Positions 1,858-33,206 of a stretch of 42,664 nucleotides of DNA are shown here, one piece after another (position 1 is the first letter of the stretch; the number at the start of each line of letters is the position of its first letter). The notes under the pieces are model-generated. The model was given only the letters and a program-made list of their open reading frames with translations. It was not told where the DNA came from and did no database searches. Made by a program: the position numbers and the translations under genes. Origin of the DNA: an archaeon (GTDB lineage Archaea; Iainarchaeota; Iainarchaeia; Iainarchaeales; JAAZKV01). Location: contig JBAXCL010000001.1 of NCBI GenBank assembly GCA_037141515.1, forward strand, positions 1 to 42,664, read 5' to 3'.

Positions 1858-2727
1858 ATGGCAAAGAAACTATTATCTAGCAAATCAAACTACGTTCCTA
1901 AACGTATGATTAACGAACTTGAAGTTGAACGCAACGGCAAGACAACATATATTGACGGGGCAGACATTTATGACGGTTTCTATGTTAAGAAAGGTGTGAA
2001 GTTTGGTAAAGGCTCTACTGTTAAAGGCGGTGGCGAATATAGGTCGTATATAAACAACATTTATAGAAACCAATCGGAACAATCTGCAAGAGAGGGGTTA
2101 ATGAATTTTGCGAGAGAACAAGGCTTTGAAATAAGTGATGTTGAAAACGCATTACAAGTTTATAAATACGATACCGAAGAAAACGCTTGGGGTGAAAATT
2201 ATTACACAAAAGTAGCAATAGCAAAAATGGTTGATATGATTTCGGGTAAATACGCTAAAGGCTCTACTGTTAAAGGTGGAGATTATAAGTTTGGCTATGA
2301 TATAACATTAAAAAAACATACGTCTAAAAATGGAACTGATATTGAATTAAGGCAAAATCCAAAAACAAAATATTATACCATATTTGTAAATGGTTTTGGT
2401 GGGACAAGCACCCCTACTGAATTTTTGCACGTTGCCGAAGATGATTACAAATACGAATTATCAAAATACGAATGGGCGGAAAAGCGAGGTGTTTTCGCTA
2501 AAGGCTCTAATGTTGAAGGTATGAGTAATAAAGAAATAATGAAGGGTAAGAACGGAAAAAAAATATCATACGCTAACGGCGGTAATATGGAAGGTTGGGG
2601 CGGAACTTCGGAAAGTAGCCAAGACGGTATGCTAATCGGTGGAACTAATGCTGAATTAACTAGCAATCAACAATACGGACACGGTGGAAGTATGGGCGGT
2701 TGGTGTTACGAGATTGGTGGATTATAA
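1858..2727 (+). CDS. Y-x-I-G-G-L tail-tag family member A (289 aa), function unknown
   Basis: Leader aaataaaaATGGC. Internal GKGSTVKGG (2005), YAKGSTVKGG (2251), FAKGSNVEG (2494) linkers. Ends GGSMGGWCYEIGGL-stop. Confidence 0.88.
   Translation: MAKKLLSSKSNYVPKRMINELEVERNGKTTYIDGADIYDGFYVKKGVKFGKGSTVKGGGEYRSYINNIYRNQSEQSAREGLMNFAREQGFEISDVENALQVYKYDTEENAWGENYYTKVAIAKMVDMISGKYAKGSTVKGGDYKFGYDITLKKHTSKNGTDIELRQNPKTKYYTIFVNGFGGTSTPTEFLHVAEDDYKYELSKYEWAEKRGVFAKGSNVEGMSNKEIMKGKNGKKISYANGGNMEGWGGTSESSQDGMLIGGTNAELTSNQQYGHGGSMGGWCYEIGGL
2635..2676. repeat. direct repeat copy 2 (atcggtggaactaaTgctgaattaactagcaaTcaacaatac)
   Basis: See 1792..1830. Encodes IGGTNAELTSNQQY inside ORF A. Confidence 0.85.
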
Positions 2728-2738
2728 AAACATAAACA

Positions 2739-2852
2739 ATGAAAAACATTTTAGGTGCTCTAGTTGTGATAGGTATTGGCGTTTTAGTTTACAACCAATA
2801 CAATAAGCACAAAAAAGAGTTAAAAAAAGTTCAAGTAAAAAAAGACAATTAG
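2739..2852 (+). CDS. 37-aa N-terminally anchored mini-protein
   Basis: Below track cutoff. MKNILGALVVIGIGVLVYNQYNKHKKELKKVQVKKDN. Fills the 2728-2854 gap exactly. Confidence 0.5.
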   Translation: MKNILGALVVIGIGVLVYNQYNKHKKELKKVQVKKDN

Positions 2853-2854
2853 CA

Positions 2855-3286
2855 ATGAATTTTAGCACAACTCATAAAGTATTAATAGGCGGAACTGCGG
2901 TTGTAGTTGTAGGCGTAATCGGTTATTTATTGTATCAAAACTACAAGAAACCAAAAATAGCAGATACAACTCCAACAGGCACTTCGGAAAAGCCTTTAGA
3001 CGCAAATGCTTTTTTAAGTCTTTTCGCTGACGCTTCAAAAAAACCGTTGACGGATACTCAAAAGAAAGCGTTTTTTGATATGTATAATACTTTATCGGAC
3101 AAAGAGAAATTTGCTTTGACGGATATTGTAAAAATACAGATAGACTGTATAAAAAGCAATCCTACTGACCCTATGAAGGCATTTGGTTGTATTGCTCAAG
3201 GCTCTCAAGGTCTAGTTGCTAAATACGGTGAAGATACACTTAAAAGCGTGGGTGAAAAAAGTAACGCTTTATTTAAAGCGAAATAA
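2855..3286 (+). CDS. hypothetical protein with N-terminal signal-anchor
   Basis: 143-aa track ORF. VLIGGTAVVVVGVIGYLLY helix at residues ~9-27, then a soluble helical-looking domain. Confidence 0.75.
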   Translation: MNFSTTHKVLIGGTAVVVVGVIGYLLYQNYKKPKIADTTPTGTSEKPLDANAFLSLFADASKKPLTDTQKKAFFDMYNTLSDKEKFALTDIVKIQIDCIKSNPTDPMKAFGCIAQGSQGLVAKYGEDTLKSVGEKSNALFKAK

Positions 3287-3302
3287 TTAAAAAAAATAAA
3301 AA

Positions 3303-3818: not shown

Positions 3819-3825
3819 TAAGACA

Positions 3826-3966: not shown

Positions 3967-3970
3967 GAAA

Positions 3971-4837
3971 ATGGATAGTGTAAAAATTTATAAGTTGGCG
4001 GAAAGTATGACTGACGCAGAATACGAAAAAAAATACAGTAAATTAACTGAAAAGCAAAAACTATCCGTTCAATCTTTGATAAGATTAGGAGATATGCCTA
4101 AATTAGCATTAGCCACTACCTTACTAAATAAAGATGATGATAGTGAAAATTCTGACACTTGGAATTTATACAAATACGCTAAAGGCTCTACTATTGATGG
4201 TGGTAAAAAGGCAGATTCGGTTGAATATAATTTTCGATTACTTGATAATGAAACTTTAAATGACGAATACTACGTTGAAAAATTACCTGACGGAAAGAAA
4301 AGAGTACATTTCAAAGCAACTTATTGGATTTTAGATAGGGAAGGAAAGAACACTTGGAATACTGATGCTTTTGTTGGATATGAAGATTTAGATAATGTTG
4401 ATAATATTGATGAAATTAAGAAACTAATTTCCGAACAAGTTTTAGAAACAGTATTGTATCATAACGCAATAGGTCATAAAACTAAAATGTCAGATATAGA
4501 TATTATTAGTAAACACGAACACAACGACTTTATAGAAGAAGCGGAAGAAGAAGAACGTGAGAAGAAGGAACGAAGAAGAAGGGGTAATGATGATGACAAT
4601 GATGAATATCGCACAGGTGGAGCGATAGGCGAAAGAGAGTACATCGTTGTTATTAGAAATAAAAAAACGGGCGAGGAGCAAGAGTTTGAGGTTTTTGCAG
4701 AAAGCAAAGCGGAGGCAAAAGATTTTGCATTAGGAATGTCAGATTATTCTCAAAATGCGAGTGTTGTGTCTGTGGAGAAATACGCTAAAGGTTCTACTAT
4801 TAAAGGCGGTTGGTGTTACTCTATTGGTGGATTATAA
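3971..4837 (+). CDS. Y-x-I-G-G-L tail-tag family member B (288 aa)
   Basis: YAKGSTIDGG (4175) and terminal KYAKGSTIKGGWCYSIGGL-stop (4781-4837). Charged EEAEEEEREKKERRRRGNDDDNDE tract. Confidence 0.88.
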   Translation: MDSVKIYKLAESMTDAEYEKKYSKLTEKQKLSVQSLIRLGDMPKLALATTLLNKDDDSENSDTWNLYKYAKGSTIDGGKKADSVEYNFRLLDNETLNDEYYVEKLPDGKKRVHFKATYWILDREGKNTWNTDAFVGYEDLDNVDNIDEIKKLISEQVLETVLYHNAIGHKTKMSDIDIISKHEHNDFIEEAEEEEREKKERRRRGNDDDNDEYRTGGAIGEREYIVVIRNKKTGEEQEFEVFAESKAEAKDFALGMSDYSQNASVVSVEKYAKGSTIKGGWCYSIGGL

Positions 4838-4850
4838 ATAAAGGACGGTT

Positions 4851-5037: not shown

Positions 5038-5415
5038 ATGAAAATACAAACTGCATACCCTATTATCATTAATAAAAAAAGGGTTAATCCGAGAGATTAT
5101 TATTTAAACGCAAACGACACTCCCGCAACAACGCCTACACAGGCTTTAGTTGACGAGAATAAGAAAAAAGGTCTTAATTGGGACAAAGCAAAAGGCATTT
5201 GGGTAAAAGCAAATGAAAGCGGTATCGTTGATAGCGTTTTAGATATTTTTGGACTAGGTAAAAAAGACCCTACTCCTCCTCCTGTTGAAGTTACAACAAC
5301 AACAACAAAAAAAGAAGGTATGAGTAAAACTACGAAAATGATTATCGTGGTAGGTGCTCTAGCGTTAGTTGGTGGTATTATTTATTATTCAACAAAAAAT
5401 AAAAAAGGAAAGTAA
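5038..5415 (+). CDS. GMSK tail-anchored protein, paralogue of next ORF
   Basis: N-terminus MKIQTAYPIIINKKRVNPRDYYLN parallels MIVKTTYPIIVNSKRVSPKDYYLN of ORF 5415. Ends GMSKTTKMIIVVGALALVGGIIYYSTKNKKGK. TAATG overlap with next ORF. Confidence 0.78.
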   Translation: MKIQTAYPIIINKKRVNPRDYYLNANDTPATTPTQALVDENKKKGLNWDKAKGIWVKANESGIVDSVLDIFGLGKKDPTPPPVEVTTTTTKKEGMSKTTKMIIVVGALALVGGIIYYSTKNKKGK

Positions 5416-5996
5416 TGATAGTAAAGACGACATATCCGATAATCGTTAACAGTAAAAGAGTTAGTCCAAAAGACTACTACTTGAACATTGATGCCAAAAA
5501 CAAAGAGGAAGTTAAAGCCTTTCAGCGTTATGCGGTTTCAAGAGGTGTAAATTTAGACTACATTAGCAAGTCAACGAAAAAATTAGTTTCGGGTGAAAAT
5601 GCAATAGACGGTGAGTATGGTGTAAAAACCCTAAACGCATATAAAACGTATGGTGCAGAGTGGGAAAAAAGCAGAGCAACGACACCTACGCCGACACCAA
5701 CACCTACACCAACACCTACGCCGACACCAACACCAACACCTACGCCTACTGCGGACGAAACCAAAAAGGACGAGGTTAAGGTAACGAAAGACGACAAAGG
5801 AAATACTACGACAGAAACTAAAAAGGCTGACGGAACTACAACTACGGTTGTTACCGACAAAAACGGCAAGGTTATCTCTAAAAAAGAGAGTGGAATGTCA
5901 AAGAAATTAAAAATGGGACTAATTATCGGTGGCGGAGTATTAGTTCTTGGCATTATTATATTCGCCATAACAAGAGGAAGTAAAAATAAAAAATAA
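5415..5996 (+). CDS. GMSK tail-anchored protein with PG_binding_1-like segment and (Thr-Pro)n linker
   Basis: EEVKAFQRYAVSRGVNLDY...IDGEYGVKTLNAYKTYG fits the peptidoglycan-binding repeat pattern (..LQ..L...DG.[FY]G..T). 24-residue TP repeat. Anchor GMSKKLKMGLIIGGGVLVLGIIIF. Confidence 0.8.
   Translation: MIVKTTYPIIVNSKRVSPKDYYLNIDAKNKEEVKAFQRYAVSRGVNLDYISKSTKKLVSGENAIDGEYGVKTLNAYKTYGAEWEKSRATTPTPTPTPTPTPTPTPTPTPTPTADETKKDEVKVTKDDKGNTTTETKKADGTTTTVVTDKNGKVISKKESGMSKKLKMGLIIGGGVLVLGIIIFAITRGSKNKK
5679..5750 (+). repeat. coding (ACN-CCN)12 Thr-Pro microsatellite-like repeat
   Basis: acg aca cct acg ccg aca cca aca cct ... read directly. It explains the antisense (GV)n ORF 5558..5968. Confidence 0.9.
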
Positions 5997-6017: not shown

Positions 6018-6806
6018 ATGCACACGATATACGAAAGTGGAAACAGACCAATGACATTAAATATTACAATAACTTGTAATGGAAAGAAGCGTTTTCGTGT
6101 TTGGTCGGAAGAGTTAAATAAAAAAAATAGCAAGTACGCAAGTAGAGAGATAGACGTTGAGAACACTAGAGAGATACAATTCTCTTTCCCTGTTTCTCCA
6201 AAGAAACTTTTTATCGGGTGTATGAATGTTCAAAATCCTAATGACCAAAGTTTTGACGTTAAAATTGAAGAAACCCCACTAAAGAAATACAATATTTGGA
6301 TTGACAAAGAAACAGAAGACTTTGTTCAATTGGCTATCAATTTCAGTCAAGTTTGCGGATTTGAAATGCCTAAAGCAAAAGGCACTATTTACCAAACGCC
6401 CGACGCTAAATTCAATATTAAATATTTCCCTGTAATTAAAGATTTCGTTTCGGGACAAATATTGAGTACACCCGCTAGAATTGGACACAATTCGGGTATC
6501 ATTGAAACGAGTGCGATTAAATTTATGCCGTACACTATTCCTATGCGAATGATGATACTTTTACACGAATTTTCACACAAGTACAAAAATTCTAAAATTG
6601 GTTTACAAGTTTCTAACGAATTTGGGGCAGATATTAACGCATTATATATATATTTGGGACTTGGATTTTCAAAAATTGACGCTATCACAGTTTTTGCCAA
6701 AGTGTTCTTAAAAGCACAGACAGACGGCAACATTCAACGTATGCGTAAAATTTTGGATTACATAAACAAGTTTGAAAATAAGGAGTATGCACAATTATTA
6801 AGTTAA
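6018..6806 (+). CDS. hypothetical protein with HExxH motif (putative Zn-metallopeptidase)
   Basis: 262 aa. Only recognisable motif is MMILLHEFSHKY, with a Glu 14 residues later (SNEFGAD). 1-nt and 0-nt gaps to the next two ORFs suggest co-translation. Confidence 0.7.
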   Translation: MHTIYESGNRPMTLNITITCNGKKRFRVWSEELNKKNSKYASREIDVENTREIQFSFPVSPKKLFIGCMNVQNPNDQSFDVKIEETPLKKYNIWIDKETEDFVQLAINFSQVCGFEMPKAKGTIYQTPDAKFNIKYFPVIKDFVSGQILSTPARIGHNSGIIETSAIKFMPYTIPMRMMILLHEFSHKYKNSKIGLQVSNEFGADINALYIYLGLGFSKIDAITVFAKVFLKAQTDGNIQRMRKILDYINKFENKEYAQLLS

Positions 6807-6807
6807 A

Positions 6808-7983
6808 ATGACAGAGCCAACTAACACATACAATCAAAATAGTTATGAACAGGAGTTAAACAGTTTTGTTAACAACGGTTACGATAACTATGATAGCGAG
6901 GAATACTACGACGCAGAAGGCGACGAAGAGGACGACGACTTGTACGAGGAAGACGGTGACGGCGAAGAATATCAAGTAGTAAGTAAATTTGGTGGAGAGG
7001 TTGACCAAGAGCAAGAGGATTTAGACGACTATGTTTACGATATTGATTTTAGTCAATTTAACGGTAGCGACTTCAAGAGTTCTCTTAACGGAGTAAACAG
7101 AACGGTAAACAAAAAAAGAAGCCAAAGAACACCCGTTAAGCGAGTTATCGTACCAAAAGGTAGAAAAGTTATAGTTGAGGGAAATAAAAGACCAAGTTCA
7201 CCGAGAGTTGCACCAAGAAGTGCAAGTCCGACTAGAAGAATGGTTAAACCAATTAGAAGCGGAGGAGTGCCGAGTTCAAGACAAGTGCCTGTTCAAGAAA
7301 ATCAAAGTGCAAGAATTATCGGCAACGGTAGAGGTGGCACAACTAAACGTATTATCGTACCAAGCAGTCAGAAAGTAATCGTTGAGGGCGTAGATAAATT
7401 TATTTTAAGTAAGGGCAAACAAGAGGATAATGTAAAGAATATCGGCTACTACAAGGGTAAAAAACTACGAGAGTTGATTTTGACAATGAATAATAATTCA
7501 GCGTTAGATTTCAATGTTGAGTTATTTAACCCGTCAGAGCCTTTGGATTATTTATTCTCAACTTCGGGCAACTTAAACAACAAAATACAGGTTGCGGGTG
7601 ATATTGTTAGTTACTCTGACGTATTGTTTAATATCCTAGCAAACCCTACTCACTTAGTTAATGCGAAATTCACATTTTCGGGTGCTACATACCAAAGTCA
7701 AATCAATCAGCCGTTAATCTTCAAAAATAAGAGAATAACAGGAGAGCAACTTGTCGAGCCAATGCAATTAGCGTTGAAAGTGGATAATATGCAAGTTATT
7801 CAAGAGATTGTATTCTTTGATATTTACAACAGTTTGAACAGACCTTTTATTCCTAATGGAATGGACGTTATTCAGTATAAAGTTTTGGCGGGTAACACGG
7901 TTACTTTTGCCTTTTATTACGAACAAAAAGATTTACGAAAATTCTTTTTTAAAGAAGCAAGAGAAAGTAAAAAATTATTATAA
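6808..7983 (+). CDS. tripartite protein: acidic N-term / Arg-Lys-Pro-rich duplicated centre / beta-rich C-terminal half (structural candidate)
   Basis: 391 aa. EEYYDAEGDEEDDD. Duplicated unit KRVIVPKGRKVIVEG (aa 111-125) / KRIIVPSSQKVIVEG (aa 180-194). C-terminal ~170 aa alternate hydrophobic/polar like a beta-sandwich. Confidence 0.8.
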   Translation: MTEPTNTYNQNSYEQELNSFVNNGYDNYDSEEYYDAEGDEEDDDLYEEDGDGEEYQVVSKFGGEVDQEQEDLDDYVYDIDFSQFNGSDFKSSLNGVNRTVNKKRSQRTPVKRVIVPKGRKVIVEGNKRPSSPRVAPRSASPTRRMVKPIRSGGVPSSRQVPVQENQSARIIGNGRGGTTKRIIVPSSQKVIVEGVDKFILSKGKQEDNVKNIGYYKGKKLRELILTMNNNSALDFNVELFNPSEPLDYLFSTSGNLNNKIQVAGDIVSYSDVLFNILANPTHLVNAKFTFSGATYQSQINQPLIFKNKRITGEQLVEPMQLALKVDNMQVIQEIVFFDIYNSLNRPFIPNGMDVIQYKVLAGNTVTFAFYYEQKDLRKFFFKEARESKKLL

Positions 7984-9897
7984 ATGGGACAGTTATTCAC
8001 ACAAAAATATCCAAATAATATCCGCACCGTATCGGGGTTGATAAATATTGTTAAGCAAGACGACGTTGTTTTGCTTTGTGATACTTCTCTAGGTGCGGTA
8101 GTAATCGAATTGCTATCTATTCCCGAAAATTATTGGAGTACTCAATACAAATTATATATTATTGACAAAAGCAATAATGCTAGTGCTCACAGTATAACGG
8201 TTGTTGCACCTCTAGGATTTAAAATAAACGCAAGTTCTACGGCAGTAATAAGCACTAACGGTGGTAGTTTATATCTTTCTGTTTGTAGTAATACTGACTA
8301 TATAGGAGTTGCGGGAGGAAGCGGTGGTGGAGTAGGCACATACAACACCGTTCAAGACGAGGGAATTTCCTTACCTAGTCGTACAACTATGAACTTTGTC
8401 GGAAAGGGTGTTACCGCAACTGACGACGGAACAAAAACAGTAGTCACCGTAAATGGTGGTATTATTGCTTTGACTAATGCAAGTATGATTGCTTTGGTTG
8501 TAGCGGGTACTGTTATTGAAGGGCAATTATATCAGATTACAGACCCTTTGAACGCTGACGGTGGCGTTATCGTTCAAGGTATTGCAAATAACGGAATAAC
8601 AACAACTGCGGGTAGTGGTATATTTTTAAACGCAGACTATCAAGGCACGGGCGATTATTCGGGAGTTAGTGGTTATACGGGTTTTTTAGGTATATGGTCG
8701 GTGAATGTTTTACCTGTTGTTGTTGGAAAGGTAGTTATTTGGTATAACAGACATTATAAGAACTTAACAGGCGTTTGGGGTACTGACCCTACTTTAGACA
8801 CAACAAATTGGCAACTTTTACCAAAAACAATAACAAACGGCTACAAGCGTGTTTTTGATTTTGTGAGATATGATTTGTATTCAAATAAAGTAGTTTATAG
8901 AGCAGACGCAAATGGAAACGAGGTAGATTTTTTTGAAGGGGCAAAAGGCACAAGTGCTTTAAGGGATTTCCAATGGGGAAGAAGTGTGGTAATGTTTAAC
9001 AAGGTTTTAGGTGGTGGTTTAATGGTCGCAACTAACAGTTCTTGTTCTTATTTTTGGAATGTAGTCACTAGCGGTGGGGAAATTAAAGATACAACTCCTA
9101 CACCACCTCCCGCTCCTGTCCCGCATTTTGGGTTAATAAGTAACAATTCAGTAACCTCAAGTGGTCAGATTTTAATGATTTCTTGTTATGGAACTGTTCA
9201 AGGTAACAATGTCGCTTCGGGAGGTACAATTAATTTAAAGTGCAACATAGATTTTAATAGCGGTATTTATAATAATAATTGTTTTAGTAATTCTAAATTT
9301 GAGTTTAACGGAACTGTTATTAATACTACTATCGCAAGTTGTACGACAACGCAAGGTGGTCTATTTGGTTTTACTAACCCGCTTACGAATACTATAATCG
9401 GTACAACCGAAGTTTCAAATAATAGTATTTTGAACGCAACTATCAGTACGTTTAATATGGAACAATGCGAAGTGAATGACGAAGGTTTAATTAATTTAAC
9501 TTCGGGTAGCGTATTTCTTCGCAAAAAATATAGGACAGGTTATAGTAATTGGGAACAGGTTTTAGACTTAACTAACCCTAGTATATTTTCAGCAAATACA
9601 CTTACGATACCTACGGCATACGCTTACGTTGGAATATTCACAACTAGCGGTAGTGGATTAACTATAAATAAAATATTGAATATGCCTAGTAGTCATAAAT
9701 GCAAGTTCTTACCTAAGCCAACTGAAAACACAAGTTTCACACACACTTTGGTTGCTAGTGCAGTATCGGGAAATTTGCTTTGTGACGTACCTTCTAGTAC
9801 GAATTTAATTACAGGAAGACTTAATGGCTCTGATTTTATAGAATATGAGTTAAGTGGAGATTTGAATGTAAGAACAAATTTAGTTTTACTAGCGTAA
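7984..9897 (+). CDS. fibre/spike-like protein with N-terminal 'CDT' adaptor domain
   Basis: 637 aa. VLLCDTSLGAVVIELLSIP...KLYII matches 5 other ORFs. One copy of the VQDEG..RTTMNFVG.GV repeat (8341-8460). GGSGGGVG and TPTPPPAPVP linkers. Asn/Ser/Thr/Gly-rich C-terminal part typical of beta-helical fibres. Confidence 0.82.
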   Translation: MGQLFTQKYPNNIRTVSGLINIVKQDDVVLLCDTSLGAVVIELLSIPENYWSTQYKLYIIDKSNNASAHSITVVAPLGFKINASSTAVISTNGGSLYLSVCSNTDYIGVAGGSGGGVGTYNTVQDEGISLPSRTTMNFVGKGVTATDDGTKTVVTVNGGIIALTNASMIALVVAGTVIEGQLYQITDPLNADGGVIVQGIANNGITTTAGSGIFLNADYQGTGDYSGVSGYTGFLGIWSVNVLPVVVGKVVIWYNRHYKNLTGVWGTDPTLDTTNWQLLPKTITNGYKRVFDFVRYDLYSNKVVYRADANGNEVDFFEGAKGTSALRDFQWGRSVVMFNKVLGGGLMVATNSSCSYFWNVVTSGGEIKDTTPTPPPAPVPHFGLISNNSVTSSGQILMISCYGTVQGNNVASGGTINLKCNIDFNSGIYNNNCFSNSKFEFNGTVINTTIASCTTTQGGLFGFTNPLTNTIIGTTEVSNNSILNATISTFNMEQCEVNDEGLINLTSGSVFLRKKYRTGYSNWEQVLDLTNPSIFSANTLTIPTAYAYVGIFTTSGSGLTINKILNMPSSHKCKFLPKPTENTSFTHTLVASAVSGNLLCDVPSSTNLITGRLNGSDFIEYELSGDLNVRTNLVLLA

Positions 9898-15291: not shown

Positions 15292-15399
15292 ATGGCTTTA
15301 TCGAAAGAAGAAAAATGGGTTTTATACGGTTACGGGGCGTTAATAATTGCGTACTCCGTTCTTTTGTTTGCTAAATTTAAACACTACAAAAAAGATTAA
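15292..15399 (+). CDS. 35-aa single-pass membrane mini-protein
   Basis: Below track cutoff. aaaaaaATGGC leader. MALSKEEKWVLYGYGALIIAYSVLLFAKFKHYKKD. Its presence argues for the 15401 start of the next ORF. Confidence 0.45.
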   Translation: MALSKEEKWVLYGYGALIIAYSVLLFAKFKHYKKD

Positions 15400-15400
15400 T

Positions 15401-25151: not shown

Positions 25152-26444
25152 TTGAAAAAAGATAGAGATATATTTTTACCCGACACTACTGTAAAATTAA
25201 GTAGTTTGAAGCGAGTGTTGAACGAAGTGTACGAATTGGATATTATAGAATTAAATAAAATGGATAAAAAAATGGAAGGTGGAACTCTTAACAGTAGCGT
25301 TATGAGTTTTACTCAAGACGATTATAACAGGCTAATGGATAGCAATATTTTTTCTTCTAACAAAGGCGAAAGGGTATTCACTATTTTCCCTAAAGGCGGA
25401 GGAAGGCACTTGGCTAAATACAATCCCGACAAACAATATATATTCGTTATAGGCAAAAAAGACTTGTCAAATCCAATAGTGAAGTGGTTATCTGAAAATT
25501 CGTATATATCAGACAACGAGAACTACAAACTTGCTGACGGCGGAACTATTGACAATCAAATGGAAAATAAATTGTGGTACGATATAGAAAAAGGAATACC
25601 ACATTCGTTCAAATACGGTGGCGACATTGGGTACGAAAACTATATTGTAGAGTTAAAAAAAGGTAGCGAAACTAGGAGAATAGGCATATTGGCTCACAGT
25701 CAACAGGAAGCGGTTTCTAAAGCCAAAAAAATGATTGGCAAGGGTTATAGCACACAAGGAGTTTTTAAATACGGACTAGGCGGTACTTTAGTGTTTTTAG
25801 GATTAGGCGTGGCGAACGAATATAAAGTAAAGTTGTATAAAAAAGGCACTTTACAAGATACTTATATTTTCAGCGAAGGGTATGTAGATAAGGCTACGCA
25901 AGACTTTAAGAAATTAGGTTATGTAGTTAGAGTTGCTAAAATAAAAACAATGGCAGAAGGCGGTAATATAGCGGTTGAAAATGCTCAAATAGGAAAAACA
26001 TATTGGAAGAAAAATCATAAAAACAAGTGGACTGAATATGTATTTAGGGGAAAAGACGATAGCGGAAATTTTTTGCTTGAAACAACCGAAACTTTATACG
26101 GTATTCCAAAAGGAAGTGACTATGTTTTAGGAAAAACATTTTTATACTTTAACGAGCCTAAACATATTAAAAATTCAGTATATCATTTGGCTAAAGGCGG
26201 TGGAGTTGACAACGAGGTTTACATTGAATTTTTAAATAAAGACAAAGGGTTTAAAAAAGACGTAAAACATTTCAAATCTTACGAAGAAGCGGTTAAGTGG
26301 GCGAGAGAAAACTTTGAAAGGTTTAATCCCGATATGATTAAATACCAAATGGCAAAAGGTGGCTCTTGCGGTTGCGGTAGTAAATTTGAAAAAGGTGGCA
26401 ACACTAATTGTGGTTGTTGGCATTATGAAATAGGTGGTTTATAA
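25152..26444 (+). CDS. Y-x-I-G-G-L tail-tag family member F (430 aa from TTG 25152; 394 aa if ATG 25260)
   Basis: TTG behind aaacaaaaaag leader. The alternative start aaataaaATGG at 25260 is equally plausible. MEGGT, LADGGT, KYGGD, GLGGT, MAEGGN, LAKGGGV (26187) linkers. Ends MAKGGSCGCGSKFEKGGNTNCGCWHYEIGGL-stop. Confidence 0.8.
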   Translation: MKKDRDIFLPDTTVKLSSLKRVLNEVYELDIIELNKMDKKMEGGTLNSSVMSFTQDDYNRLMDSNIFSSNKGERVFTIFPKGGGRHLAKYNPDKQYIFVIGKKDLSNPIVKWLSENSYISDNENYKLADGGTIDNQMENKLWYDIEKGIPHSFKYGGDIGYENYIVELKKGSETRRIGILAHSQQEAVSKAKKMIGKGYSTQGVFKYGLGGTLVFLGLGVANEYKVKLYKKGTLQDTYIFSEGYVDKATQDFKKLGYVVRVAKIKTMAEGGNIAVENAQIGKTYWKKNHKNKWTEYVFRGKDDSGNFLLETTETLYGIPKGSDYVLGKTFLYFNEPKHIKNSVYHLAKGGGVDNEVYIEFLNKDKGFKKDVKHFKSYEEAVKWARENFERFNPDMIKYQMAKGGSCGCGSKFEKGGNTNCGCWHYEIGGL

Positions 26445-26455
26445 AACATAAAAAA

Positions 26456-28003
26456 ATGAAAAAAACAGTATTCACAAAAGACGGTGTTGAAGTAGAAAAA
26501 GGCACTAACAAGTACAAAGGACATATCTTCTATGACGAAGACGGTGGCAAATATAAATGTTTAGGATACTTCCCGAAACTAGACGATTGCGTTTATGAAA
26601 ACTTGCAAACAGGCAAAGAAGTTGTTGGTTGTATGGACGGGTTTTATTTTAAAGACCCTAAAAAATTCGCTAAAGGCTCTACTATAAAGGGTAATTCAGC
26701 GTTTACTTTTCAAGGACTAGACAAACGCTTTCAAAAACTTGATTGGAGAGATACGACAGAAGCGTACTACGGTTTAGATTTTACTCCATTTATGAGTGTT
26801 GTTGAGGAATACATAGAACAAAGCGGTAAAAGTTCACAGGGACTAAATAGCCACTTTGAAAAACTTGATTGGAGAGATACGACAGAAGCGTACTACGGTT
26901 TAGATTTTACGCCTTTTATGAGTGAAATTGAGAATTATGCTACTTCAAAATTTGCTAAAGGCACTACAATAAGCGTAGGTCGTGCATTGAAAGGTGGATT
27001 TAAGTTTCACAATTTGTCAAGCGGAGATAAGGTTATTTATGGAAAAAAAGAATTGGTTATTTCTGTCGTTGGACAAGACTTTTTGTATGGAGTAGATAAG
27101 TTTGGAAAACAATATAAAATAACTTCAATTAAAGACATAAAGCCTAGCGAAGAATTGTCTAAAAAATTAATGAAAAATGGCGGTGGATTTAAGTTAGGCG
27201 ACAAAGTTAAAGTCGTAAGAGGTGCAAATAAAGGAGAAAAAGGGGTTGTGTCAAACACGGATAGCGACTTTTTTGGAGATTACACTATTGATGTTAGAGG
27301 GCATAAATTATGGGGATTTAAAGCAGACGATTTGATTAAATACGCTAAAGGCTCTACCGTTAAAGGTGGTGGCGTTGGAAAATTTAAGGTTGGCGACAAG
27401 GTTATAATAGAGTACATAAATGACGGTAATGAGCATAATGGAGAAATCGGAACAATAACTTACCTTAATGAATACAATTACTACCCTAAAGGAGATAAGT
27501 CAGTTGTTGAGAGAAAAACTCAAGGAGAAATCACTTATCATAATGGCGAGGTAGAAGAAGTTTCGGACTTTTATCGTGAAGGAAGTGGTTTGGTTTCACC
27601 TATTCAAAAAGTAATATTAAGAAAAGCCAAAGAATATGTGAATACCGACTTAATAAAAAAAGAATGGCAAGAAAAAAATAAATACGCTAAAGGCTCTACT
27701 ATAAAAGGAAATAGTAATTACAGAAAATTCGGAGCAGAAAATTCAAGATTAGCGAAATTTAATATTGATGATTTAGATGATTTTGAATCAATGCAATATA
27801 ACCAATTTAGTAAGTCAATGGATAAAGCAAGTGCATTACAAATTTTGATTAACAACGTAGAGGGAGATTACTCTCAATTAAATGAGCAACTTTCTGAAAT
27901 TGCAGAAGAGCAATTTCCATCTGTTGAGTTTTTTGAAGATAATAGACAATACAAAAAAGGAGGCGCAATAAAAGGTTTCTGTTACACAATAGGTGGATTA
28001 TAA
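26456..28003 (+). CDS. Y-x-I-G-G-L tail-tag family member G (515 aa) with KOW-like barrels and an internal 42-aa duplication
   Basis: FAKGSTIKG (26666), FAKGTTIS (26951), YAKGSTVKGG (27341), YAKGSTIKG (27683). GDKVKVVRGANKGEKGVV is a good KOW motif. Ends YKKGGAIKGFCYTIGGL-stop. Confidence 0.88.
   Translation: MKKTVFTKDGVEVEKGTNKYKGHIFYDEDGGKYKCLGYFPKLDDCVYENLQTGKEVVGCMDGFYFKDPKKFAKGSTIKGNSAFTFQGLDKRFQKLDWRDTTEAYYGLDFTPFMSVVEEYIEQSGKSSQGLNSHFEKLDWRDTTEAYYGLDFTPFMSEIENYATSKFAKGTTISVGRALKGGFKFHNLSSGDKVIYGKKELVISVVGQDFLYGVDKFGKQYKITSIKDIKPSEELSKKLMKNGGGFKLGDKVKVVRGANKGEKGVVSNTDSDFFGDYTIDVRGHKLWGFKADDLIKYAKGSTVKGGGVGKFKVGDKVIIEYINDGNEHNGEIGTITYLNEYNYYPKGDKSVVERKTQGEITYHNGEVEEVSDFYREGSGLVSPIQKVILRKAKEYVNTDLIKKEWQEKNKYAKGSTIKGNSNYRKFGAENSRLAKFNIDDLDDFESMQYNQFSKSMDKASALQILINNVEGDYSQLNEQLSEIAEEQFPSVEFFEDNRQYKKGGAIKGFCYTIGGL
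26733..26924 (+). repeat. intragenic tandem duplication (two 66-nt near-identical cores, period 126 nt)
   Basis: aaaaacttgattggagagatacgacagaagcgtactacggtttagattttac.cc.tttatgagtg at 26733-26798 and 26859-26924 (KLDWRDTTEAYYGLDFTPFMS twice). Confidence 0.9.
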
Positions 28004-28384
28004 ATGACACGAAGAGCAAAAATAGTATTAGGGATAACGATTGCCGTCATAGTCGGAGGAATATTCGGCTACAAAGCCTACAAGAAAAAGAAAGACGAAA
28101 AGAAAGCGGAAGAGGACAATTCGCCTAAAGTTGAAGTGCCTAACGCATACGAAGTGGCTAAAAAAACTTTGCCTAACGGTAAAGAAGTAAATGATAGTTA
28201 TGTTGTTTCGGTTGCTAACGAGGGTAAAGACCCTATTGCTTTGCGTTTTTACAAGAACAACAGGGTTGCTTTCTCCATAAAAGGTAAACTAGAAAGTATG
28301 GGTACTTACTCTGACGGCGGTAAAACAAAGCCAACAATTAAGATTAAGTTTGATAATGGTAAAACAATGAATTTCGGACTATGA
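28004..28384 (+). CDS. N-terminally anchored hypothetical protein
   Basis: 126 aa. ATG immediately follows the stop of G. IVLGITIAVIVGGIFGY anchor. ATGA overlap with next ORF. Confidence 0.7.
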   Translation: MTRRAKIVLGITIAVIVGGIFGYKAYKKKKDEKKAEEDNSPKVEVPNAYEVAKKTLPNGKEVNDSYVVSVANEGKDPIALRFYKNNRVAFSIKGKLESMGTYSDGGKTKPTIKIKFDNGKTMNFGL

Positions 28385-28770
28385 GAAAAAAAATAGAAAA
28401 GCGTTCGTCAAGAGAGTTGTTGGCTGACAAAACATTTAAGGCACTTGCTAGTGGAAGTCGTAAGTCAAAAAAATATGCAACAATAGAACTTGCAAACGGC
28501 ACGAAGTTTCGCCGTAGAAACGCAAATCAAACGGGTGACGTAGAAGGCGGTATTGTTTACTCTGAAAAAAGACCGAACAGGACTGATAGAAAGGGTAGTT
28601 CAAAGCCTACTCAAAGCACTCAAGGTAAAAGTAGAAGCACTCGGACTACTCGGACTACTCGTACCCGTAGAGCACCCAATACGACTACAAAAGCACCCAA
28701 TATGTCAAACACTTTGAGGTTTTTAGGAGTAGAATTTAAAAAATATAACTATACAATAGGAGGTTTATAA
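28381..28770 (+). CDS. Y-x-I-G-G-L tail-tag family member H: small, extremely basic protein
   Basis: 129 aa rich in R/K/T/S. STRTTRTTRTRR is encoded by a 9-nt repeat (28639-28668). Ends VEFKKYNYTIGGL-stop. Confidence 0.78.
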   Translation: MRKKIEKRSSRELLADKTFKALASGSRKSKKYATIELANGTKFRRRNANQTGDVEGGIVYSEKRPNRTDRKGSSKPTQSTQGKSRSTRTTRTTRTRRAPNTTTKAPNMSNTLRFLGVEFKKYNYTIGGL

Positions 28771-29361: not shown

Positions 29362-30393
29362 ATGGCAGTAAAAACGGTAAATAAAAAAACAAAAGACGTT
29401 ACAAAAACACAGGCGTTCAAAGATTGGTTTGGCGACAGTAAGGTTGTTGACAAAAAGGGGAAGCCTTTGGTTGTTTATCACGCTACTACCCAAAAATTCT
29501 TTGAGTTTGACCGTGAGAGAGGTAACGCAGAGGGGTGGTTTGGTTTGAGTTTTTATTTTACAGACAGTTTATTGGACGCTACTAACAACTACTTGTCTAG
29601 CGGTGCTGATTTAACTAACCGAATAGAAAGGTTAACCGACAGGTATTCAAGTAAACTAGAGGACGAATACGACGATATTATTGACGATAAAAAAAGTATT
29701 GCAAAAGAGTACGGATTAACACCTAATCAAGTTACCGCTTTAGGCGACTTTAGGAGTTTAGCGAAACACCTTGCAAAAAAGGAATTAAAAGGCGAATACG
29801 AATTAACGCTACCGTTCTATTTGAGTTTACAAAACCCTTTGGATTTAAGACGTACTTATTACGACGCACAGGAGGTTTATAACGAAGAGGACGATAGTTA
29901 CGAGGATAACGGAGATAGTTTACCTAACAGACTGTATGAAGCAATAAGGGTTATTTCGTATGACGATTATTTTAACGAGTACAACAATATAGACTTTCAA
30001 GAGGTATTTGACGATATTGCTAGTGGTATAGATTATCAATGGGACGGGACAAGTGCCTACTCTGTTGACAAATCTTTTAGAAGTTCTAATGCTTTGGCGG
30101 ATATTGGCGACGAATATGGCAACTCTGTTTCGTATGAATTTATAAGAAGAGTTTACGAGGAAATGGGTTTTGACGGTATTGTTATGGACGCAGACCTTGA
30201 GTTCGGAAGTCGTAAAAAAATGGGTAAAAGTATGGTTATGGACGAGGGGACAACGCATTACATAGCGTTTGAGCCAAATCAAATGAAACTAGCAGACGGA
30301 ACAAATATTTCTTTCAATAAAGACACTAACGATTTCCGTTATGAAAAAGGCGGAAAAATGACTACTTTTGTATATGAAATTGGCGGACTATAA
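29362..30393 (+). CDS. Y-x-I-G-G-L tail-tag family member I: ADP-ribosyltransferase-like domain of the polyvalent-protein type (ART-PolyVal-like)
   Basis: FKDWFGDSKVVDKKGKPLVVYHATTQKFFEFD ... WFGLSFYFTDS ... MGFDGIVMD ... HYIAFEPNQMK matches my recollection of the ART domain of phage/conjugative-element polyvalent proteins. Ends YEKGGKMTTFVYEIGGL-stop. Confidence 0.85.
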   Translation: MAVKTVNKKTKDVTKTQAFKDWFGDSKVVDKKGKPLVVYHATTQKFFEFDRERGNAEGWFGLSFYFTDSLLDATNNYLSSGADLTNRIERLTDRYSSKLEDEYDDIIDDKKSIAKEYGLTPNQVTALGDFRSLAKHLAKKELKGEYELTLPFYLSLQNPLDLRRTYYDAQEVYNEEDDSYEDNGDSLPNRLYEAIRVISYDDYFNEYNNIDFQEVFDDIASGIDYQWDGTSAYSVDKSFRSSNALADIGDEYGNSVSYEFIRRVYEEMGFDGIVMDADLEFGSRKKMGKSMVMDEGTTHYIAFEPNQMKLADGTNISFNKDTNDFRYEKGGKMTTFVYEIGGL

Positions 30394-30681: not shown

Positions 30682-31347
30682 ATGGCAGAAACTAACATAA
30701 AAATACCCTCAATTAACAAGTCTTTCTACGATACAGTTTCGGCAAAGGCTAACCAAGAAAAGATTAAGAACGTCATACGTCCTAAATTCGGTGAGATAAT
30801 CAAAAGAATGTCGGGGTATTCTAACGTGCCTACCGAATTAATTGAAAGTTTTATTTTCATTGAGAGTGGCGGAAACGCAAATGCACAATCTCCCTATGCA
30901 ACGGGGTTAATGCAATTAAACGGTGCTACCGCTTCCGACACAATAGTTAAGGAAAAAGGTGCGGGACGGCTTTCGGCGGAAGAGGGTGCAATCCTTAAAA
31001 AGTATTTAGGTAGTCGTTACACTATGGTTGAGGGCGTTAAACCTAAACAAACTTCTCTAGGAAAAACATTCATAACGAACGACGACTTATTGAAACCCGA
31101 ATTTAATGTTTTAGTAGGAACAATGCTTCTGAAACAATTAATGGACGAGTTCACGGGTGCTGACGGAAAAATCCGTATGGACAAGGTTATCGTTATTTAC
31201 AACGGTGGTCGCTACGGTAAAGTTGCAAAAAAAGTAATCCCGTTTCAAGGCACAACAGAGGACTTAATAACCCAAGTTCCAAAAGAAACTTCTTCATACA
31301 TTTTGAAGTTGTTAGGAACGCAAGGTATTTTAGATACAATGGTATAA
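30682..31347 (+). CDS. SLT-domain lytic transglycosylase
   Basis: ELIESFIFIESGGNANAQSPYATGLMQLNGATASD = catalytic E-S ... G-L-M-Q signature of soluble lytic transglycosylase domains. YNGG further downstream. Confidence 0.82.
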   Translation: MAETNIKIPSINKSFYDTVSAKANQEKIKNVIRPKFGEIIKRMSGYSNVPTELIESFIFIESGGNANAQSPYATGLMQLNGATASDTIVKEKGAGRLSAEEGAILKKYLGSRYTMVEGVKPKQTSLGKTFITNDDLLKPEFNVLVGTMLLKQLMDEFTGADGKIRMDKVIVIYNGGRYGKVAKKVIPFQGTTEDLITQVPKETSSYILKLLGTQGILDTMV

Positions 31348-31361
31348 TAAAAAATAAAAAA

Positions 31362-31610
31362 ATGAAATTGAAAAACTATTACAAGCCAACCCCTAAAAAG
31401 TGGAGAAAGTTTGGCGACGCAATTTTGGTTACAGGTACTTTTATTACAGGTATCGTATTGGTTGAATTTGACAAATTGAAAGAGGTTTACTCTATCGAAA
31501 TGTTGAGGTGTATGATTGGTGGTGCTATGGTATTAGGTGTGGCGGGTAAATTCCTGTCAAACTTCTTTGCCGACGACACAGTTCCAACTCCAACTGATAA
31601 TGAAAAGTAG
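31362..31610 (+). CDS. two-helix small membrane protein (holin candidate)
   Basis: 82 aa. ILVTGTFITGIVLVEF and MIGGAMVLGVAGKFL helices. Charged C-terminus. Sits between SLT and the endolysin and overlaps the endolysin start by 11 nt. Confidence 0.6.
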   Translation: MKLKNYYKPTPKKWRKFGDAILVTGTFITGIVLVEFDKLKEVYSIEMLRCMIGGAMVLGVAGKFLSNFFADDTVPTPTDNEK

Positions 31611-32205
31611 CGATTGGCTTTACAAATACAGATTTGCTATTGGCGGTGGATTAGCACTCGCAATAGTTGGTGTTGTTGTTTATTTAAACAGAAGACGAAT
31701 TAGAAAACTAGGAAGCGACGTTATGGAATATGCACAAAATAAAGTATGGGACACGGTGTCGGAAAGAAATATTGAACGATTGCACCCCAAAGTAAGAGAT
31801 AAAGCAAGAGAGTTTATTAACAGAGTTGAGAAAGAACTAGGTATTAAACTTCGTGCGACAAGTACGCTTCGTACATACGCAGAACAGGACGAATTGTATG
31901 CTCAAGGACGAACGAAAAAAGGCGGTATTGTAACTAACGCAAGAGGAGGTCAAAGTAATCATAACTTCGGTACGGCGTTGGACGTTGTGCCTATTGTGAA
32001 CGGTCAAGCGGATTGGAAAACAAGTGCCGACACTTGGAGTAAGATTGCAAAAGTAGGCAAGGCGGTAGGATTTGATTGGGGCGGTGATTGGAAGTCAATT
32101 GTTGATAAACCTCACTTTGAAATGAATTTTGGAAACTCGTTGGCTCAAATGCGTCAGAAATACGAAAGCGGTCAGCGTGACGGAGATTATATAAAACTAG
32201 CGTAA
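31600..32205 (+). CDS. peptidase M15 (VanY / L-Ala-D-Glu peptidase-type) endolysin with N-terminal signal-anchor
   Basis: LHPKVRDKAREFI...TSTLRTYAEQDELYAQGR...GQSNHNFGTALDVVP...WGGDW...DKPHFE = Zn ligand set H..D / H of the M15 family. N-terminal FAIGGGLALAIVGVVVYL suggests SAR-like export. Start moved from 31537 to ATG 31600. Confidence 0.85.
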   Translation: MKSSDWLYKYRFAIGGGLALAIVGVVVYLNRRRIRKLGSDVMEYAQNKVWDTVSERNIERLHPKVRDKAREFINRVEKELGIKLRATSTLRTYAEQDELYAQGRTKKGGIVTNARGGQSNHNFGTALDVVPIVNGQADWKTSADTWSKIAKVGKAVGFDWGGDWKSIVDKPHFEMNFGNSLAQMRQKYESGQRDGDYIKLA

Positions 32206-32540
32206 TGAATATAGATAAAAAAACAATAGCGATAATCGTACTTTCAATTGCTTTGGCAGTTGTTTCGTGGATTGCTTACAAACCGCAACCTACATACGAT
32301 AATAGTTTAATAGAAAGTCAATTACAGGAACTTAAAGATAAGAATAGACTTATGGGCGGTTATATTCTTTACGTTGAGAAAACGGCGTTTTTGAAGCAAC
32401 AAAAGATTGACAGTTTAGAAAGTTTAAAACCAAAAATAGAAATAATATATGTTAACAAATTCAAAGAAATTGACAACGCTAGTGCTAATGTTATTGCTAG
32501 TGAGTTCAAAGGTATTTTCGCAAAAAGTAATGTTAAATGA
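32205..32540 (+). CDS. i-spanin-like protein (N-terminal TM + coiled coil)
   Basis: 111 aa. IAIIVLSIALAVVSWIAY, then LIESQLQELKDKNRL...KQQKIDSLESLK. TAATG overlap with the endolysin stop. Confidence 0.65.
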   Translation: MNIDKKTIAIIVLSIALAVVSWIAYKPQPTYDNSLIESQLQELKDKNRLMGGYILYVEKTAFLKQQKIDSLESLKPKIEIIYVNKFKEIDNASANVIASEFKGIFAKSNVK

Positions 32541-32886
32541 TAAAGGCGACACGACGATTTGCTTCACGGTTGGTCAGAGTAAGTACCTTTTAAAAGAACA
32601 CTACGCACTAGAAAAATGCGATACCTTAAAAAGTATCTGTGAGCAACAAAGGTCGCTTTGCGATAGTGTTATTGCTGATAAAAACAAAATAATTAATGCT
32701 AAAAATTTTATGCTAGATAATCAAAACACAATGCTCAAACTAAAACAGTATGAGGTTGATAAATTAACGGAACAATTGAATGTTTGCAATAAGGAAGTCA
32801 AAAAACAGAAGACTTACAAATGGATTGCAATAGGTAGCGGTATTGCCGTTTCTTTATTTTCGGGGTATTACATTTTAACACACTAA
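32449..32886 (+). CDS. Cys-containing coiled-coil protein with C-terminal TM, overlapping previous ORF out of frame (spanin-partner / u-spanin-like topology)
   Basis: From ATG 32449 the N-terminus KKLTTLVLMLLLVSSKVFSQ looks like a signal peptide, but there is no lipobox Cys. Alternative start ATG 32530 gives an 11-nt overlap only. C-terminal WIAIGSGIAVSLFSGYYIL. Confidence 0.6.
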   Translation: MLTNSKKLTTLVLMLLLVSSKVFSQKVMLNDKGDTTICFTVGQSKYLLKEHYALEKCDTLKSICEQQRSLCDSVIADKNKIINAKNFMLDNQNTMLKLKQYEVDKLTEQLNVCNKEVKKQKTYKWIAIGSGIAVSLFSGYYILTH

Positions 32887-32888
32887 AT

Positions 32889-33206
32889 ATGAATTTTTCA
32901 GAATATTCAAATGACGCTTTAGCCGATATGATTGTTAACCTTTCAAGGTATGAAAACACCGAAGACAGTATTCAAACGGTAAAAGAGGAATTAAAAAACC
33001 GAAAACAGGGTACAACTTATTCCGTAAGTAAAAGAGGTAACGAATACGTTTATAAAATAAAGGGCGAAAACTTTGGCGGATACGAATTGACGCACGTTAG
33101 TAAGCATAAACTTTCCGATAACGAAATAAACGAAATAGGTAAAAGCAACGAGTATAAAAACGGTGGCGTAGTGCCAACATTTAATTACACAATAGGCGGA
33201 TTATGA
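32889..33206 (+). CDS. Y-x-I-G-G-L tail-tag family member J (105 aa)
   Basis: Ends NEYKNGGVVPTFNYTIGGL-TGA. ATGA overlap with next ORF. Confidence 0.8.
   Translation: MNFSEYSNDALADMIVNLSRYENTEDSIQTVKEELKNRKQGTTYSVSKRGNEYVYKIKGENFGGYELTHVSKHKLSDNEINEIGKSNEYKNGGVVPTFNYTIGGL

Follow-up and report, generated by a model that had tools for sequence, protein, structure and literature searches.

A strictly C-terminal Y-x-I-G-G-L tail on punctuated mosaic proteins of an uncultured virus lineage, a possible address for effector cargo

The stretch of DNA analyzed here, positions 1 to 42,664 of contig JBAXCL010000001.1 (hereafter the window; 42,664 bases, guanine-plus-cytosine (GC) content 35.7%), encodes ten proteins that finish in the same tail, Y-x-I-G-G-L, directly before the stop codon. 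We show that this tail is a strictly terminal short linear motif under selection at the peptide level, and that it is common to otherwise unrelated soluble strings of effector modules. Judged from its sequence, the tail is best read as a shared address or processing signal. Within that range we lean, tentatively, towards a C-terminal address tag that would load interchangeable effector cargo into the virion, a reading drawn from sequence features and from analogy. More tentatively still, this virus lineage may use a strictly C-terminal, eight-residue cargo-loading peptide that is coupled to a recombination punctuation conserved as DNA, so that one crossover would make any module injected cargo.

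A six-frame scan from stop to stop returned exactly ten open reading frames (ORFs) with Y-x-I-G-G-L ends, all on the plus strand, and their end positions and tail residues match those listed in a first-pass annotation of the window (Table 1). The back-translated pattern TAYNNNATHGGNGGNYTNTRA had ten matches in the window and none in 100 dinucleotide-preserving shuffles, which excludes chance as the source of the tail. Together, the ten ORFs amount to about 3,515 codons, or approximately 25% of the window, as had been estimated. Their bodies had been called dissimilar by eye, and BLAST similarity between them is indeed confined to the terminal module and to a glycine-rich element that we term the punctuation. 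The annotated ADP-ribosyltransferase (ART)-like enzyme and extremely basic RTT-repeat protein were recovered by a Pfam match and by isoelectric point (pI), respectively (Table 1); the annotated KOW-like barrels correspond to a match that is only borderline (22.5 bits; cut-off, 22.3 bits). A transmembrane segment is predicted in none of the ten proteins and in many of their neighbors.

The same annotation had placed a [YF]-x-K-G-G element shortly before the tail. An element of the form [YF]-x-[KNL]-G-G lies 8-10 residues upstream of the tail in nine of the ten ORFs and is absent from the basic ORF 28381-28770. It does not belong to the tail specifically: about 30 copies, counted as [YFM]-[AGE]-[KN]-G-[GS]-x-[VIM], occur within the same ten proteins and almost none in the 40-odd other ORFs, such that the element is a general punctuation between modules. 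The terminal module, of approximately 18 residues, comprises one punctuation followed by x-[TM]-x-G-[FW]-[CN]-Y-[STE]-I-G-G-L-COOH, and its last eight residues form an amphipathic, beta-strand-like peptide that closes on G-G-L. K-G-G nearly always precedes the tail because the punctuation is the site where the tail gets joined on. This larger structure, i.e., punctuated mosaics that have modules in common with other genomes and are akin to polyvalent proteins, was absent from the first-pass annotation.

We searched a profile hidden Markov model (HMM) of the last 45 residues exhaustively with HMMER against 1.84 billion cluster representatives (E ≤ 0.001) and obtained matches in 152 clusters; the exhaustive search was needed, as a word-indexed profile search gave one match only. 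Among the matches listed, together with homologues found earlier, Y-[STED]-I-G-G-L closes 150 of 159 proteins with the match reaching the last residue, in keeping with the strictly C-terminal hits that such a scan had been proposed to look for. Four large ART proteins gave an internal best match (P0060, P0112, P0119, and P0146), and in these only the upstream part of the profile matched. Across 887 distinct proteins from the loci and searches, the tail was terminal 279 times and internal never. I-G-G-L itself was present in 267 of 272 endings, with V-G-G-L and L-G-G-L as rare variants. A cysteine occupies position -7 in about half of all tails, and some tails directly follow Cys-rich stretches, as in ORF 25152-26444 (SCGCGSKFEKGGNTNCGCWHYEIGGL) and in locus L240 at 7958-8263 (GGSTCGCSGCKH...); these cysteines could bind metal or form a disulphide.

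A specific DNA pattern for the tail led to 99 metagenomic loci, mostly from JGI environmental samples. Genuine tagged ORFs were found in 81 of them and at least two in 34, with up to six per 13 kb in some; locus L125 contains seven (271-901 amino acids) in 21 kb. In these loci, which were picked for having the tail and thus give a biased share, tagged genes make up 150 of 647 called genes. The GC content of tagged loci is mostly 26-43%, and the position of the tail is kept across these diverged genomes and in homologues, a point on which the first-pass annotation had made its proposal depend. The lineage consists of uncultured low-GC viruses, mostly from JGI environmental metagenomes and on contigs commonly of 50-110 kb. 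Two related contigs are present in IMG/VR. A loose-pattern scan of IMG/VR gave almost only chance matches, locus L043 being the single true one, and an IMG/VR search for loci related to three window proteins found no relatives. A scan of a genome collection yielded 11 single matches compared to about 15 expected by chance, of which only one looks genuine. This is an intergenic mini-ORF of 22 codons at 1766-1834 of locus L130 (JACPJP010000017.1, a Woesearchaeota metagenome-assembled genome (MAG)) that encodes MLVINYAKGGIFINFVYKIGGL and then stops, i.e., essentially a naked terminal module of punctuation plus tail; it sits between cellular genes of this DPANN archaeon MAG (37% GC).

The two halves of the terminal module are conserved in different ways. 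We compared codons in [YF]-A-[KN]-G-[GS] elements across 82 loci with background usage and found strong bias at four positions: TAC for Tyr (79% vs. 34%; p = 1e-22), GCT for Ala (71% vs. 35%), GGC for Gly (41% vs. 19%), and TCT for Ser (98% vs. 22%; p = 4e-32). The punctuation thus has a preferred DNA form, TAC GCT AAA GGC TCT, and the same bias appears when the window is taken by itself, and also in L125, a diverged relative. In contrast, tails across the 82 loci use both Tyr codons, all three Ile codons, four Gly codons, and five Leu codons, are followed by TAA, TGA, or TAG, and have synonymous codons that track background usage, while the peptide is invariant. The ten window tails vary as had been tabulated (Tyr TAC/TAT 5:5; Ile ATT/ATA; four Gly codons; Leu TTA/TTG/CTT/CTA). 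The claim that the shared ending is no recently copied DNA block consequently holds for the tail, where varied codon spectra lead us to reject such copying, and fails for the upstream punctuation half, which is conserved as DNA. Given that the punctuation is fixed as DNA and the tail is not, the former serves as a recombination junction and linker and the latter as a peptide-level signal.

Tagged proteins are strings of 1-12 small modules (ART-PolyVal, ArdA, KOW-like, and many unknown) separated by [YF]-x-[KNDE]-G-[GS]. When 176 distinct proteins were cut at the punctuation, 584 modules in 261 families were obtained, and recurrent modules had up to 18 types of left neighbor and 17 types of right neighbor. 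We then located breakpoints from partial matches with at least 70% identity; among these pairs, which are not independent, 53% of breakpoints fell within five residues of a punctuation compared to 12% of random positions, and the median distance was 5 residues compared to 23.5. An exchange can also be followed in DNA between the window and locus L164. Both flanks of gene 3971-4837 are 92-93% identical; homology ends at the first punctuation of this gene (approximately 4199) and restarts at 4842, just past its stop codon. The replacement segment in L164 measures 1.6 kb, within which 103 nucleotides match a module from a different window gene at 97% identity. Likewise, backbone proteins are 90-98% identical to those of loci L122 and L123, whereas tagged genes in corresponding places show only partial likeness. 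These findings show that the punctuation is a recombination junction for module exchange and that the tagged genes are a mosaic fraction with rapid cargo turnover within a conserved backbone.

Individual window proteins illustrate this pattern. Tagged protein 1 has five to six internal punctuations, depending on the pattern used, and proteins of quite another make-up contain its modules at 80-94% identity, in every case with punctuation at the borders. All 20 of its homologues are mosaics that reuse its modules, and 16 of them have the tail at their end. Some punctuation-rich mosaic homologues, P0010 and P0015, finish in ...EKCFL[RL]P[HY]YK[VI]K instead; this may be an alternative C-terminal ending, perhaps a second address. 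One module of tagged protein 4 sits in a 20-member module family, tagged protein 7 contains seven punctuations and an internal duplication of 126 nucleotides (repeat family D9), and the N-terminal module of the RTT-repeat protein is also present in P0008, P0009, and L043.

Only some of the modules have recognizable domains. Pfam searches of 138 tagged cluster representatives detected ART-PolyVal in 18, ArdA in one (P0007), KOW-like domains in three, and a few domains of unknown function. ART-PolyVal and ArdA are hallmark domains of polyvalent proteins, which are mosaic multi-domain effectors whose injection with DNA has been inferred, with the T4 Alt ADP-ribosyltransferase as prototype (Iyer et al., 2017; PMC5512222). 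The same paper has polyvalent proteins enter the virion by means of fused MuF or portal domains, with processing of some by zincin-like peptidases embedded in them (PMC5512222). The tagged proteins resemble them in being multi-domain effector strings with these two domains, in their mosaicism, and possibly in their gene neighbors, which may be of virion type. Their domains likewise come from a shared, shuffled pool, with disparate activities recognized for ART, ArdA, and KOW-like modules only, and their genes lie among fibre-like and peptidoglycan hydrolase genes, where no capsid, portal, or terminase gene was recognized. They differ in being shorter (105-901 amino acids) and in lacking the fused MuF, portal, or peptidase domains, with the tail instead. 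Large ART-PolyVal polyvalent proteins (1,095-1,233 amino acids) carry [YF]-x-x-G-G after each domain (...DIR[YF]E[KD]GG/LIAPNGK...) and have no tail; neither punctuation nor tail is mentioned by Iyer et al. (2017). Based on the shared domains, mosaicism, and punctuation, the window proteins are relatives of polyvalent proteins that are short and bear the tail.

An AlphaFold model of the window ART protein, made with an alignment of 19 sequences, has a mean predicted local distance difference test (pLDDT) score of 62. Its residues 327-343 score approximately 35 and are unpacked from the body, save for a four-residue strand at 338-341. From selection on the peptide, occurrence at a free C-terminus only, and this unpacked state, we infer that the tail is a short linear motif that is read in trans, presumably by one partner. 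If the tail is an address, it would dock any string of modules onto one partner in the assembling virion, and the effectors would be packaged and then co-injected with the genome. Because the tail always follows a punctuation, any module could gain or lose the address through the same junction recombination, and such exchange would explain the very fast turnover of cargo in a conserved backbone. The tag may be trimmed later, with the conserved zincin-like protein discussed below as a speculative candidate. By analogy, the cargo appears typical of injected anti-host proteins, with an ART like T4 Alt and with ArdA, which must act on entry. The DNA-binding-like basic member also argues for an address, as does the gene position next to fibre and lysis genes; the RTT-repeat protein appears to resemble DNA-associated internal proteins.

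Several points weigh against an address. The invariance of I-G-G-L exceeds that of usual docking peptides, and we judge it more typical of signals recognized by enzymes. No capsid, portal, scaffold, terminase, or prohead protease gene was recognized in the window or related loci by Pfam, PHROGs, and NCBIfam (about 50 backbone ORFs of the window and L122), by tblastn against phage records, or by a PDB sequence search. It is solely by co-orientation with fibre-like and lysis-type genes that the region can be called late or structural, and the abundance of tail-anchored membrane proteins would be unusual for the structural module of a tailed phage. The ArdA-bearing protein comes from a 1.4-kb contig without context. 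Finally, the low confidence of the tail in the ART model is weak evidence, given that the model as a whole is only moderate.

The closest analogues to this system are the capsid-targeting sequence (CTS) of phage T4 and encapsulin cargo peptides for function, polyvalent proteins for content, and the glycine-rich motifs of gp38 adhesins for punctuation. In T4, the prohead protease cuts off the CTS. The internal proteins of this phage are a varied set of defence proteins that have only the CTS in common (PMC3012670); as here, a short peptide is all that unites diverse, fast-evolving anti-host proteins (IPI-III and Alt), including an ADP-ribosyltransferase. The T4 cargo is packaged in the head and injected, as the tagged proteins would be if the tail is an address. 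The CTS, however, is N-terminal and binds the scaffolding core, whereas the tail has an unrelated sequence and forms the extreme C-terminus in 279 of 279 cases; being C-terminal, it falls outside the T4 class.

On encapsulin cargo proteins, a short and disordered peptide at the C-terminus, GSLxIGSLK for example, attaches them to the inside of the shell (PMC10960027). Like the tail, the Family 1 peptides (GSLxIGSLK, LTVGSLRR, and TVGSLIQ; PMC10960027) are short, usually C-terminal, preceded by a flexible linker, and found on unrelated cargo. Their hydrophobic-x-I-G-S-L core resembles x-I-G-G-L, and they dock inside a shell with the HK97 fold; no HK97-fold capsid protein was recognized near tagged genes in the window or related loci. 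Encapsulin peptides usually have basic ends, can vary in sequence, and are found on one or a few types of cargo in an operon, whereas the tail ends in Leu-COOH, is nearly invariant, includes aromatic residues, and occurs on about ten proteins per 40 kb. The encapsulin consensus (L/I)-x-(V/I)-G-S-L-(K/R) does not describe it, with only I-G-x-L overlapping with [FW]-[CN]-Y-[STE]-I-G-G-L-COOH. In gp38 adhesins of T-even phages (PMC3157838), glycine-rich motifs also separate variable segments and exchanges occur within or near them; those motifs form the structural core of one domain, whereas the punctuation separates independent modules in many genes and has fixed codons. We searched the literature for the motif strings and for cargo signals at phage C-termini, and no description of the tail came up.

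Recognition of the tail by an enzyme, either a protease or a ligase, is jointly the main competitor of the address reading, with which it is compatible, and we regard it as rather unlikely. In its proteolytic form, which on its own is unlikely, a virus peptidase would cleave after G-G, remove the Leu, or remove the whole tag, with no addressing required, and might also cut the punctuation, thereby maturing, activating, or separating modules. Invariance of I-G-G-L and the need for a free end fit such a signal, and one enzyme could read tail and punctuation because both have the form aromatic-x-x-G-G. Core proteins of adenovirus, African swine fever virus (ASFV), and poxviruses are cut at G-G/X or A-G/X by the adenovirus protease, pS273R, and I7, respectively. 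There is a likeness in that G-G stands near an end or between units of a virion-core polyprotein; however, the hydrophobic residue of the tail lies at P3 rather than P4, and neither a clan CE or deubiquitinase-like protease nor a beta-grasp fold was found. Autoproteolysis by zincin-like peptidases has been proposed for polyvalent proteins (PMC5512222).

A plausible processing enzyme, putative on sequence grounds, is encoded in the same operon by ORF 6018-6806. Its motif, ILLHE[FY]SHK...(14)...NE[FI]GADIN, does not vary among 15 copies from the loci and 38 homologues from databases, and contains HExxH with a downstream Glu ligand (E-x-x-A-D or N-E-x-x-x-D) as in zincins. In the AlphaFold model (pLDDT 92.6), the N-terminal part is a beta-sandwich, and the secondary-structure elements of the C-terminal domain follow each other in an order compatible with a zincin (a beta-sheet, the active-site helix, and then the Glu helix); the family ranks among those that most often co-occur with tagged genes. 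The peptidase fold is nevertheless unconfirmed: Foldseek gave no significant peptidase match (best, a phage 'Peptidase M48'; E = 9e-3; TMq 0.34), and Pfam, NCBIfam, and PDB sequence searches gave no zincin match. In addition, the family far exceeds that of the tail in size, with at least 1,203 homologues and contigs as long as 235 kb; of three diverged zincin-bearing loci, two carry tagged ORFs no more than 10 kb away, and the third lacks any within 20 kb. A role as strict partner of the tail is consequently unsupported. The strong fixation of the punctuation as DNA points to recombination rather than pure proteolysis, and removal of a single Leu would have no obvious purpose unless coupled to something else.

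The tail could alternatively have a structural role in place of an address, either closing a small fold common to the proteins or mediating self-association, for instance as a beta-hairpin that oligomerizes them or anchors them to a fibre or a membrane protein. Although the alternating hydrophobic residues of [FW]-x-Y-x-I and the modeled strand at 338-341 are strand-like, the proteins have only about 18 residues in common, the modules before these are unrelated, and the modeled tail has low pLDDT and is unpacked, all of which make this improbable. The first-pass annotation had itself considered that the tail might be the final strand of a single known domain family; as the tail is covered by neither a Pfam nor a PHROG family, we rejected a known domain, or its last strand, as the explanation. 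Also improbable, and in our estimate slightly more so, is a covalent sorting or ligation signal akin to sortase LPXTG, GlyGly-CTERM, or ubiquitin-like G-G, through which the tail would be cleaved and the new C-terminus joined to a virion component, lipid, or host target. Such a signal would suit a near-invariant, strictly terminal peptide with G-G and the many membrane proteins nearby. The scanned ORFs, however, include no E1/E2-, sortase-, rhombosortase-, or transpeptidase-like gene and no JAB, PafA, or Dop-like match, neither a beta-grasp fold nor a transmembrane segment precedes the tail, and the bodies before it are unrelated modules, unlike the beta-grasp or Pup-like body that stands before the G-G of ubiquitin- or Pup-like proteins.

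A signal for turnover, timing, or the nascent chain, i.e., a C-terminal degron for a host protease or an arrest peptide active at termination, would be read as peptide, directly before the stop codon and in the terminal position that the tail requires, and the 22-codon mini-ORF that consists of the terminal module alone would fit it. We consider it very improbable: it is hard to see why a quarter of the coding region would be tagged for degradation or stalling, five of the ten tails have no downstream gene within 100 nucleotides, and we know of no precedent for such a tail. Least credible of all is a DNA artefact, either a ribosome-binding site for the next gene or a right-hand scar of cassette recombination, for although AGGAGG occurs within the I-G-G codons of two tails, three tails lie 1-12 nucleotides from the next start codon, and L164 homology restarts directly past a stop codon, the third positions of Gly codons use all four bases and the peptide stays invariant while the DNA varies. 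The ribosome-binding-site version was rejected, as start leaders are A-rich without Shine-Dalgarno sequences (four of 42 are Shine-Dalgarno-like, and two of these four are tail codons) and five tails are more than 100 nucleotides from the next start.

The genome around the tagged genes lies far from annotated phages. Megablast of 20 kb against 50,697 phage records returned no match, and PHROGs, Pfam, and NCBIfam recognize only three peptidoglycan hydrolases, one methyltransferase, and phrog_8203 on the minus strand. The hydrolases are an endolysin-like protein (phrog_181), an SLT-type transglycosylase, and a VanY/M15 peptidase with an N-terminal membrane anchor. Together with fibre-like proteins, they are interleaved and co-oriented with the tagged genes (Table 1). 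The 637-residue (7984-9897) and 494-residue (23223-24707) proteins have a common N-terminus of about 150 residues, with 33-35% identity to each other's homologues, and probably form two fibres or spikes anchored in the same way. Within the latter, 23555-24173 consists of five tandem repeats of 126 nucleotides (42 amino acids), and one related unit is found in the former (8383-8438).

A transmembrane segment is predicted in approximately 17 of 43 plus-strand ORFs, and many of these proteins have a tail anchor and an N-terminal part that is acidic or of low complexity. Such numbers could reflect a membrane-containing particle or a large ejection or lysis apparatus. Six of these proteins share a second C-terminal ending, i.e., a transmembrane helix followed by a basic end (...IIYKSRTGKGK, ...YYSTKNKKGK, ...ITRGSKNKK, and ...YKSMKGKKAGK), and their N-terminal parts contain TPTPTP, PPLPPLPPLPPP, or SGSDSGS. 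The adjacent ORFs 11105-11506, 11537-11938, and 11966-12361 (131-133 amino acids) include at least two paralogues, the last two; one of the three ends by chance in ...LTGGL. A 225-residue ORF (18014-18691, plus strand) begins with an ATG inside the tail codons of ORF 16846-18033, in a different frame. It has D-Y-K-G-G near its N-terminus, and its K-L-N-G...EGFVLK...WxVKxRK recalls motifs I, IV, and V of ligases and nucleotidyltransferases; NCBIfam gave no match. Plus-strand genes have a common A-rich start context, AAAATAAAAAAAATGGCA. The repeat TTTGTCATTTTTTCTAG..., as read on the plus strand, occurs at minus-strand gene starts (families D15 and D12) and probably serves the oppositely oriented genes, presumably an early block, as a common promoter or leader.

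In NCBI, the window contig belongs to a MAG labeled 'archaeon', although the virus has peptidoglycan hydrolase genes. A homologous contig was assigned to a Chitinophagales bin, and GH108/PG_binding_3 and phage-lysozyme genes are present in relatives. A bacterium with peptidoglycan is the more likely host.

Table 1. Positions of the tagged proteins, punctuation copies, and neighboring features in the window.
Feature	Position	Strand	Remarks
Tagged mosaic protein 1	1858-2727	+	289 amino acids; tail ...YGHGGSMGGWCYEIGGL; terminal module at approximately 2671-2727
Tagged mosaic protein 2	3971-4837	+	288 amino acids; tail ...YAKGSTIKGGWCYSIGGL
Tagged mosaic protein 3	15347-16846	+	start codon uncertain, TTG 15347 (499 amino acids) or ATG 15401 (481 amino acids); tail ...FKLGGNTASSYSYEIGGL
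Tagged mosaic protein 4	16846-18033	+	395 amino acids; tail ...FGKGGTTKSWNYEIGGL
Tagged mosaic protein 5	18705-20273	+	522 amino acids; tail ...YAKGGNMSSGYDYSIGGL
Tagged mosaic protein 6	25152-26444	+	start codon uncertain, TTG 25152 (430 amino acids) or ATG 25260 (394 amino acids); Cys-rich tail region ...FEKGGNTNCGCWHYEIGGL
Tagged mosaic protein 7	26456-28003	+	515 amino acids; KOW-like module; tail ...YKKGGAIKGFCYTIGGL
Tagged very basic RTT-repeat protein	28381-28770	+	129 amino acids; pI 11.4; tail ...EFKKYNYTIGGL; no upstream K-G-G
Tagged ADP-ribosyltransferase, ART-PolyVal	29362-30393	+	343 amino acids; PF18760, E = 4e-17; tail ...RYEKGGKMTTFVYEIGGL
Tagged single-module protein	32889-33206	+	105 amino acids; tail ...YKNGGVVPTFNYTIGGL
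Reference DNA-conserved punctuation	2247-2279	+	TAAATACGCTAAAGGCTCTACTGTTAAAGGTGG (K-Y-A-K-G-S-T-V-K-G-G); repeat families D3 and D14
Further copies of the TAAATACGCTAAAGGCTCTACTGTTAAAGGTGG type	1998-2030, 2490-2522, 4171-4203, 4777-4809, 19409-19441, 26662-26694, 27337-27369, 27679-27711		
-GG- variant of the punctuation	15913-15937, 17070-17094, 19880-19904, 26186-26210, 27169-27193		
Conserved backbone protein, candidate zincin-type metallopeptidase	6018-6806	+	262 amino acids
Peptidoglycan hydrolases	13357-14040, 30682-31347, 31600-32205		last two among tagged genes
Transmembrane proteins with basic end	27-1037, 5038-5415, 5415-5996, 9920-10342, 14040-14756, 14760-15287		homologous families in L122 at 6485-7786 and 7795-8496
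Repeat family D15	38384-38427, 41403-41446, 41897-41940		
Repeat family D12	35297-35340, 38361-38395, 42027-42061		

Whatever the function of the tail, the punctuation is a clear natural case of a recombination grammar in protein-coding DNA, in which fixed linker codons enable a virus to reassort effector modules, both inside a gene and from one gene to another, against a constant backbone. Should the tail prove to be a virion address, it would to our knowledge be the first phage peptide known to load cargo from the C-terminus, and would provide a ready-made handle of 8-18 residues for loading foreign proteins into particles. The simple rule of ending in Y-x-I-G-G-L would then flag several hundred unannotated proteins as probable injected effectors of anti-defence or host takeover, a rich hunting ground because most of their modules have no known function. 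For the viruses themselves, tail and punctuation would together constitute a plug-and-play system for evolving the injected proteome.

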